Assembly (NCBI RefSeq): GCF_003334355.1 | Contig: NZ_QOWP01000030.1 | Strand: one strand, 5' to 3' | Length of the DNA: 45,643 nt | Source of the DNA: Escherichia coli | GTDB lineage: Bacteria; Pseudomonadota; Gammaproteobacteria; Enterobacterales; Enterobacteriaceae | Shown: in pieces, positions 45,226 through 45,360 of the stretch | How positions within the stretch are numbered: position 1 is the stretch's first letter | Layout of the letters: every line of letters starts with the position of its first letter | Position numbers and translations under genes: made by a program | Notes under the pieces: generated by a model | What the model was told of the DNA's origin: nothing | The model's input: the letters and a program-made list of their open reading frames with translations, nothing else | Database searches by the model: none

Positions 45226-45360
45226 ATCGCTAAGGTGGAAGCGGTAGTAAAACGTGAAGGATAACGTTGCATCAGCAACGGCCCGAAGGGCGAGACGAAG
45301 TCGAGTCATCCTGCACGACCCACCACTAACATAGTTAGTTGTAGTATCCAGCGTAGTATT

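Follow-up and report, generated by a model that had tools for sequence, protein, structure and literature searches.

A tRNA-linked repeat of the RtT family between lysT and valT, and its filled and empty alleles in the Escherichia coli lysT operon

Based on the analysis of a 45,643-nucleotide stretch of Escherichia coli DNA (contig NZ_QOWP01000030.1; hereafter, the window), the segment at positions 45226–45325, lying between lysT and its real spacer, was identified as a member of an already described repeat family. It very probably represents a single structured tRNA-linked repeat (TLR; RtT in Rfam) of about 100 nt, for which we propose an excision like that of a tRNA end and a copy number that changes through the repeats. 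The correct annotation of this segment is a tRNA-linked repeat (RtT family), not a tRNA-Lys pseudogene fragment, and, as judged from the sequence, lysT is itself the Lys gene of the Lys-Val unit, to which 45226–45325 is an add-on. TLRs are an old, still unexplained family in the best-studied bacterium; the distribution of filled and empty sites in the population and the covarying closing helix described here are small additions to this known family.

The end of the window carries the cpoB-lysT-valT-lysW-valZ... tRNA operon of E. coli, in which ARAGORN located tRNA-Lys (lysT, 45150–45225), tRNA-Val (valT, 45361–45436), tRNA-Lys (lysW, 45440–45515) and tRNA-Val (valZ, 45567–45642). This operon end is 100% identical to that of strain A65EC, the operon is flanked by cpoB and nadA, and the operon region was found in all of the complete E. 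coli genomes searched (5426/5426). The lysT-valT spacer occupies 45226–45360 (135 nt), and the element begins at 45226, the first base past the lysT CCA, on the same strand as lysT. According to Northern blots, the lysT operon yields a single transcript (Agrawal et al. 2014); that study of its processing makes no mention of the repeats and deems short C-rich spacers, such as that between valT and lysW, relevant to processing by RNase P only. The valT-lysW spacer at 45437–45439 reads CTC in the window and CC in K-12 (L002 542–543).

The 3' end of the element at 45308–45325 (ATCCTGCACGACCCACCA, + strand; hereafter, the tag) matches the tRNA-Lys 3' end, CCA included, at all 18 positions, as had been claimed by the original prediction. 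It is the right copy of an 18-bp direct repeat, of which the left copy (45208–45225, + strand) is the 3' end of lysT, comprising the end of the T-loop, the 3' strands of the T-stem and the acceptor, and CCA. About 2e-9 exact 18-mers are expected by chance in a 135-nt spacer, which rules out a chance origin. On the + strand of the 45.6-kb window, ATCCTGCACGACCCACCA starts at 45208, 45308 and 45498 and at no other site, and two of these three sites are the tRNA-Lys genes themselves. The identity between the tag and lysT ends at exactly 18 nt, and that between the tag and lysW plus its trailer extends to 22 nt, the tag and CTAA being common to both. The 35 nt following the tag (45326–45360, + strand) are the true Lys-to-Val spacer and align with the lysW-valZ spacer (45516–45566, + strand, 51 nt) except for one 16-nt indel, so that the parallel originally drawn between these two flanks is borne out. 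It is explained by the fact that the lysW-valZ spacer carries a TLR in K-12 (149 nt) and is empty in the window (51 nt).

Upstream of the tag, on the + strand, the element starts with a variable trailer or linker of 27 nt (45226–45252), which differs among TLR copies and, in terminal copies, duplicates the terminator; here, the predicted fold allows GGTGG at 45234–45238 to pair with the CCACC of the tag. The trailer is followed by CGTGAAGGAT (45253–45262), the 5' strand of a closing helix, whose complementarity to nt 1–10 of the tag is interrupted by one A·G mismatch and which co-varies with tRNA identity. Two conserved core hairpins, CGTTGC-ATCA-GCAACG (hairpin 1, 45265–45280) and GCCC-GAA-GGGC (hairpin 2, 45281–45291), and a small third hairpin, GAC-GAA-GTC (45294–45302), lie between the two strands. 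The hairpins GTTGC-ATCA-GCAAC and GCCC-GAA-GGGC had been pointed out in the original prediction, and they are real: both are present in the minimum-free-energy fold, and both map to conserved positions of the RtT model. The fold of the 100-nt RNA has a predicted energy of -34.7 kcal/mol (z = -2.77), with CGUG.AAGGAU/AUCCU.CACG as the closing helix. We infer a shape in which the T-stem would be extended into the acceptor strand, the core would take the place of the T-loop, and the ...ACCCACCA tail would be free.

From one tRNA identity to the next, the upstream strand of the closing helix varies together with the tag, at a consistent spacing from it: CGTGAAGGAT pairs with the tag start ATCCTGCACG in Lys copies, GGGGAAGGAT with ATCCTTCCCC in Tyr copies, GGGAGGAT with ATCCTCCC in Arg copies, and AGAGGAT with ATCCTCT in Pro copies. 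When 23 short-type Lys and Arg copies were aligned, pairing was recognized in 95.4% of the cells, versus 28–48% with slid partners. Changes on both sides were found in four pairs of the closing helix and the third hairpin; a pair of the closing helix is U-A in Lys and G-C in Arg, and the middle pair of the third hairpin is A-U, G-C or C-G in different copies. The stem of hairpin 1 is nearly invariant (1/138 cells unpaired) and that of hairpin 2 is invariant in the family; because these stems almost never vary, the two main hairpins are uninformative for covariation, either way. The covariation rests on a small number of independent events, corresponding to four or five tRNA identities. A scan of the spacer gave no promoter-like site, and the only terminator-like site there (core hairpin 1, minus strand) is no more than shuffled sequences yield. 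A small ORF (comparable to tpr at tyrT) was rejected, as only frames of 20–54 aa that overlap the tRNA genes or the core are present, with no coding support.

The defining trait of TLRs is a 3' end identical over 18–19 bp to that of the upstream tRNA or rRNA gene; they were first noticed at tyrT by Egan and Landy in 1978, and the catalogue of Rudd (1999) lists 22 copies in K-12, distributed over ten loci with between one and five copies each, those in tRNA operons having no known function (Stenum et al. 2021, PMC8144298). The lysT-valT element resembles these TLRs of E. coli in its location in a tRNA operon, its position directly 3' of a stable RNA gene, its 18/18 tag and its homologous body with the conserved core, and nothing essential differs. 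The Rfam model RtT (RF00391; curated gathering score, 45 bits) matched 45157–45325 with 60.2 bits, ending on the last base of the tag. When 45200–45365 alone was searched, the score was still 52.0 bits (match, 45200–45325), and the body aligned locally with the 178-bp repeat of tyrT at a score of 38 (null, 15.1 ± 2.4; 0/2000 shuffles scored as high), so the RtT match is not a mere product of the overlap with the tRNA. Three RtT matches were found in the operon of the strain identical to the window (in the lysT-valT, lysY-lysZ and lysZ-lysQ spacers), versus five in the K-12 lysT operon (in all four long spacers and past the lysQ terminator), which fits the published range per locus; the lysW-valZ and post-lysQ sites are empty in the window strain. 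The post-lysQ copy is labeled 'RtT sRNA' by NCBI PGAP in some E. coli genomes.

The core hairpins and the closing helix between the tag and its upstream complement are shared with rttR, the RF00391 RNA at tyrT-tyrV that was reportedly described by Bosl and Kersten in 1991. The four copies at tyrT-tyrV, the locus from which the family was originally defined, score 133–137 bits each, and every one of them ends in the tRNA-Tyr 3' end. The lysT-valT copy differs from them in its tag, which is Lys instead of Tyr, and in being a short form without the 5' domain of about 40 nt found in the tyrT copies (GAGAAGCTTCGAC..AAGGTTCGA); because this domain is missing, the model fills its positions 1–50 with the lysT T-arm, and the score is 60 bits instead of about 135. 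As a possible by-product of tRNA precursor processing that might in principle act in trans, the element also has a likeness to the tRNA spacer-derived regulatory RNAs, of which 3'ETS-leuZ is said to have been reported by Lalaouna et al. in 2015; however, 3'ETS-leuZ has no sequence relationship to the lysT-valT TLR. The 5S-linked TLRs rrA, rrB and rrF are built likewise, with the core and then 18 bp that repeat the 3' end of the stable RNA preceding them, but they are situated between the dual terminators of rrnA, rrnB and rrnD, whereas the lysT-valT copy is situated between two tRNA genes.

The genomes of other species (one genome per species) were scanned with the core pattern, followed by local tRNA detection; about half of the loci listed were chance matches (high-GC actinobacterial or MAG) with no tRNA nearby, and these were left out. 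Among the matches listed, the core lies downstream of tRNA-Lys(UUU), tRNA-Tyr(GUA), tRNA-Pro(CGG) and tRNA-Arg(ACG) in many Enterobacterales, and downstream of tRNA-Ser(CGA) in Thioalkalivibrio. Most copies, in at least about 50 cases, carry the exact 18/18 tag of the neighboring tRNA, and the tag follows lineage-specific variants of the tRNA (Tyr ...CCCCCGCCACCA in L065 and Lys ...CACGCCCCACCA in L072). A homologous unit of 101 nt exists in Citrobacter werkmanii and Phytobacter massiliensis in the arrangement cpoB-Lys-TLR-Val. Tandem arrays of TLRs, with periods of 156–178 bp, were found in other genera and fit unequal recombination between the tags.

TLR-like units extend beyond the Enterobacterales. 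In Thioalkalivibrio thiocyanoxidans (L123, minus strand, unit 1320–1502), the tag is an 18/18 copy of the tRNA-Ser(CGA) 3' end, and in Marinobacterium lutimaris (L077), two matches are found 177 nt apart, with only the first 10 nt or so of the tRNA-Arg(CCG) end matched. In six further loci (L045 170, L086 190, L087 on the minus strand, L095 388, L097 on the minus strand and L106 85), the core is followed by ...CATCAACTGCCAGGCATCAAAT, which resembles the 3' end of 5S rRNA; a tRNA-Thr follows closely after two of them, and the copies ending in CATCAACTGCCAGGCATCAAAT fit the published 5S-linked TLRs rrA, rrB and rrF.

All five TLR sites of the operon were polymorphic among seven E. coli genomes, and at each site the short allele corresponds to the long allele minus exactly one unit. 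The filled and empty spacers are 135 and 35 nt for lysT-valT, 149–150 and 51 nt for lysW-valZ, 146 and 48 nt for lysY-lysZ, and 132 and 33 nt for lysZ-lysQ, respectively; after lysQ, the filled allele is longer by one unit of about 155 nt (in one strain, 148 nt), with a 54-bp repeat including the terminator, and the empty allele has no unit. In the empty lysT-valT alleles, lysT is joined directly to CTAACATAG..., and in strains uk_P46212 and MB06173, the lysT-valT spacer consists of 35 nt, CTAACATAGTTAGTTGTAGTATCCAGCGTAGTAT(C/T), the sequence following the tag in the window; thus, 45326–45360 is the whole spacer of the TLR-less E. coli strains, except for its last base, which is C or T in them. 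One UPEC strain has no TLR in the whole operon. The filled lysT-valT allele is present in 3663 of the 5426 complete E. coli genomes (about two-thirds), and about a quarter of the matching genomes, including ST131, Nissle 1917 and several UPEC strains, match from the tag onward only; the lineages without the lysT-valT copy are described as B2-type. Because whole lineages lack it, the lysT-valT TLR is dispensable in nature. Because orthologous copies exist in Citrobacter and Phytobacter, the filled state is ancestral and the empty E. coli alleles are precise deletions. The clean filled and empty alleles at five sites, the tags that track the tRNA and the covarying helix are usable for designing experiments on the TLRs of tRNA operons.

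In the window, a filled (lysT-valT) and an empty (lysW-valZ, 45516–45566) TLR site are found side by side, and in the lysW-valZ spacer of K-12 (L002 620–768), a TLR of 98 nt is situated exactly between the lysW CCA and CTAA. The fifth TLR of K-12 is of the long form, lies past the lysQ terminator (L002 1354–1545) and is absent in the window strain (L001 3653–3690). A further terminator copy comes after it, the 54-bp direct repeat consisting of the tag plus the terminator, and this arrangement resembles the dual terminators of rrnB. Recombination between tRNA copies also removes entire tRNA genes: just two Lys genes are left in the lysT operon of ST648 (L005 1651–1835), and in E110019 (L006 1651–2362), one Lys-Val unit is missing and the first spacer is of the lysW-valZ type.

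We propose that the tag would pair with its complement in the precursor RNA to give a helix like that of a T-arm and acceptor, with a free ...ACCCACCA tail, and that the machinery acting on tRNA 3' ends might cut the module out in the way it handles a tRNA end, by an RNase E cut just past the CCA (after 45325) and exonucleolytic trimming. The excised RNA would probably be a short-lived by-product with no required function, and the copy number may shift when the repeated tRNA ends recombine or replication slips between them. Downstream of the module, the junction ...CCA|CTAAC... is constant in filled and empty alleles, which would explain why gain or loss is tolerated. The idea, put forward in the original prediction, that the lysT-valT element may be a processing substrate is a reasonable one under this scheme. 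Recognition of the repeated end by RNase E has been proposed by Stenum et al. (2021, PMC8144298), for the 5S-linked copies only. Northern probes to the lysT-valT spacer reportedly detect precursors only, in RNase P mutants (Agrawal et al. 2014), which suggests that the excised RNA is short-lived.

A more active role of TLRs seems unlikely, although it is compatible with the conserved core, the tag that tracks tRNA variants and the covarying helix. They may be self-propagating, non-autonomous elements that acquire and keep the 3' end of the stable RNA gene beside them, the tag helix being a mimic of a tRNA minihelix that would engage RNase P, RNase E or the enzymes of the CCA end. If this were true, differences in the presence of copies, such as that between K-12 and ST131 or Nissle, would tune how the Lys and Val tRNAs are processed or how much of them is made. 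If the element were a purely neutral passenger, a core so highly conserved across genera would not be expected, and it may therefore have a function.

It is quite unlikely that the excised RNA of about 100 nt is a functional trans-acting sRNA or a protein sponge like RrA, RrB and RrF, even though these relatives, which contain several GGA motifs, are processed and bind Hfq and CsrA in vitro (PMC8144298). The core is conserved across genera and the predicted fold is stable, as might be expected of such an RNA; however, the 19 TLRs of tRNA operons score below 0.01 in a prediction of CsrA binders and are predicted non-binders, and the role in the stringent response once claimed for the tyrT RtT was later retracted (PMC8144298). 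Changes of clustered 'RtT RNA' features of 166–170 nt, a length equal to that of the matches found here, have been reported in an RNA-seq paper on Klebsiella, but those reads are uninformative because the features overlap tRNA-Lys. The precursor-only signal of the Northern probes, the major E. coli lineages without the lysT-valT copy and the UPEC strain without any copy in the operon also speak against a functional sRNA.

The original prediction implied an ancestral Lys-Val repeat unit, with the 18 nt being the leftover of a second tRNA-Lys gene mostly deleted or overwritten in place. As this origin would require, the copy comprises exactly the final 18 nt of the gene and is followed by a sequence that parallels the lysW-valZ spacer; further, the very first TLR of the family might stem from a partial duplication of a tRNA gene. 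For the lysT-valT element, however, such an origin is very improbable. The 82-nt body is no more similar to nt 1–58 of tRNA-Lys than shuffled sequences are (P = 0.72), but is homologous to the tyrT repeat, and neither ARAGORN nor Rfam gave any tRNA-like match in the spacer; with no residual tRNA similarity beyond the 3' fragment and no partial cloverleaf in the spacer, a decayed tRNA gene was rejected on the dissimilarity of the body to tRNA-Lys and the lack of a tRNA model match. It had been stated that an isolated 18-nt identity, with no similarity in its flanks, would count against the Lys-Val origin, and here the two sides differ: the downstream flank is similar to the Lys-Val unit, whereas the upstream flank has no tRNA similarity. 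The module of body plus tag is not tied to the Lys-Val unit, because it also occurs between two Lys genes, downstream of the final gene of the operon and next to tRNA genes for Tyr, Arg, Pro and Ser, and the empty alleles join lysT straight to the Val spacer. Moreover, in species with a divergent tRNA the tag has kept its identity to that tRNA, and such tracking of its neighbor is not the behavior of a decaying remnant. The claim of a Lys gene lost from the unit is accordingly not upheld, and the RtT repeat is retained as the identity of the element.

The T-loop is a classical crossover position for tRNA-targeting integrases. The 18-bp repeat, which starts in the T-loop (TTCGA|ATCC) and bounds the 82 nt, could in that light be an attL/attR-type scar in lysT, with the 82 nt as a miniature, non-autonomous remnant mobilizable in trans; the order of complete tRNA, insert, 3' fragment and original flank matches integration, and filled and empty sites both occur. 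We consider such a scar highly improbable. The direct repeat is there, but an integrase and a single target specificity are not: no integrase or credible ORF exists in or near the 82-nt insert, the neighbors being cpoB and nadA, and the one core is combined with at least five different tags among the matches listed, which would need five att specificities. The tandem arrays of 156–178 bp and the 54-bp repeat of K-12, which includes the terminator, point to unequal recombination instead, the orthologous position across genera indicates vertical descent, and the upstream strand complementary to the tag would be left unexplained. The matches in the plasmid collection do not indicate mobility either, since almost all of the 21 matching records are megabase-scale and chromosome-like, and all were typed as non-mobilizable.

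Two other repeats were noticed that are distinct from the TLR. A perfect 12-bp inverted repeat with a 10-nt loop, ACACGACCAGAA ... TTCTGGTCGTGT, is located at 44994–45027 of the window, where it directly follows the stop codon of cpoB and precedes the lysT promoter region; no T-run accompanies it, and no terminator was called there in the scan. In Pectobacterium (L091 and L092) and Brenneria (L113–L115, L118, L119 and L121), a different dispersed repeat was found that has the GCNACGGCCCGNAGGGCGA motif in common with the TLR but is not beside tRNA genes and continues with ...GGAT..CCGTCATAAAAAAAC and a terminator-like sequence.
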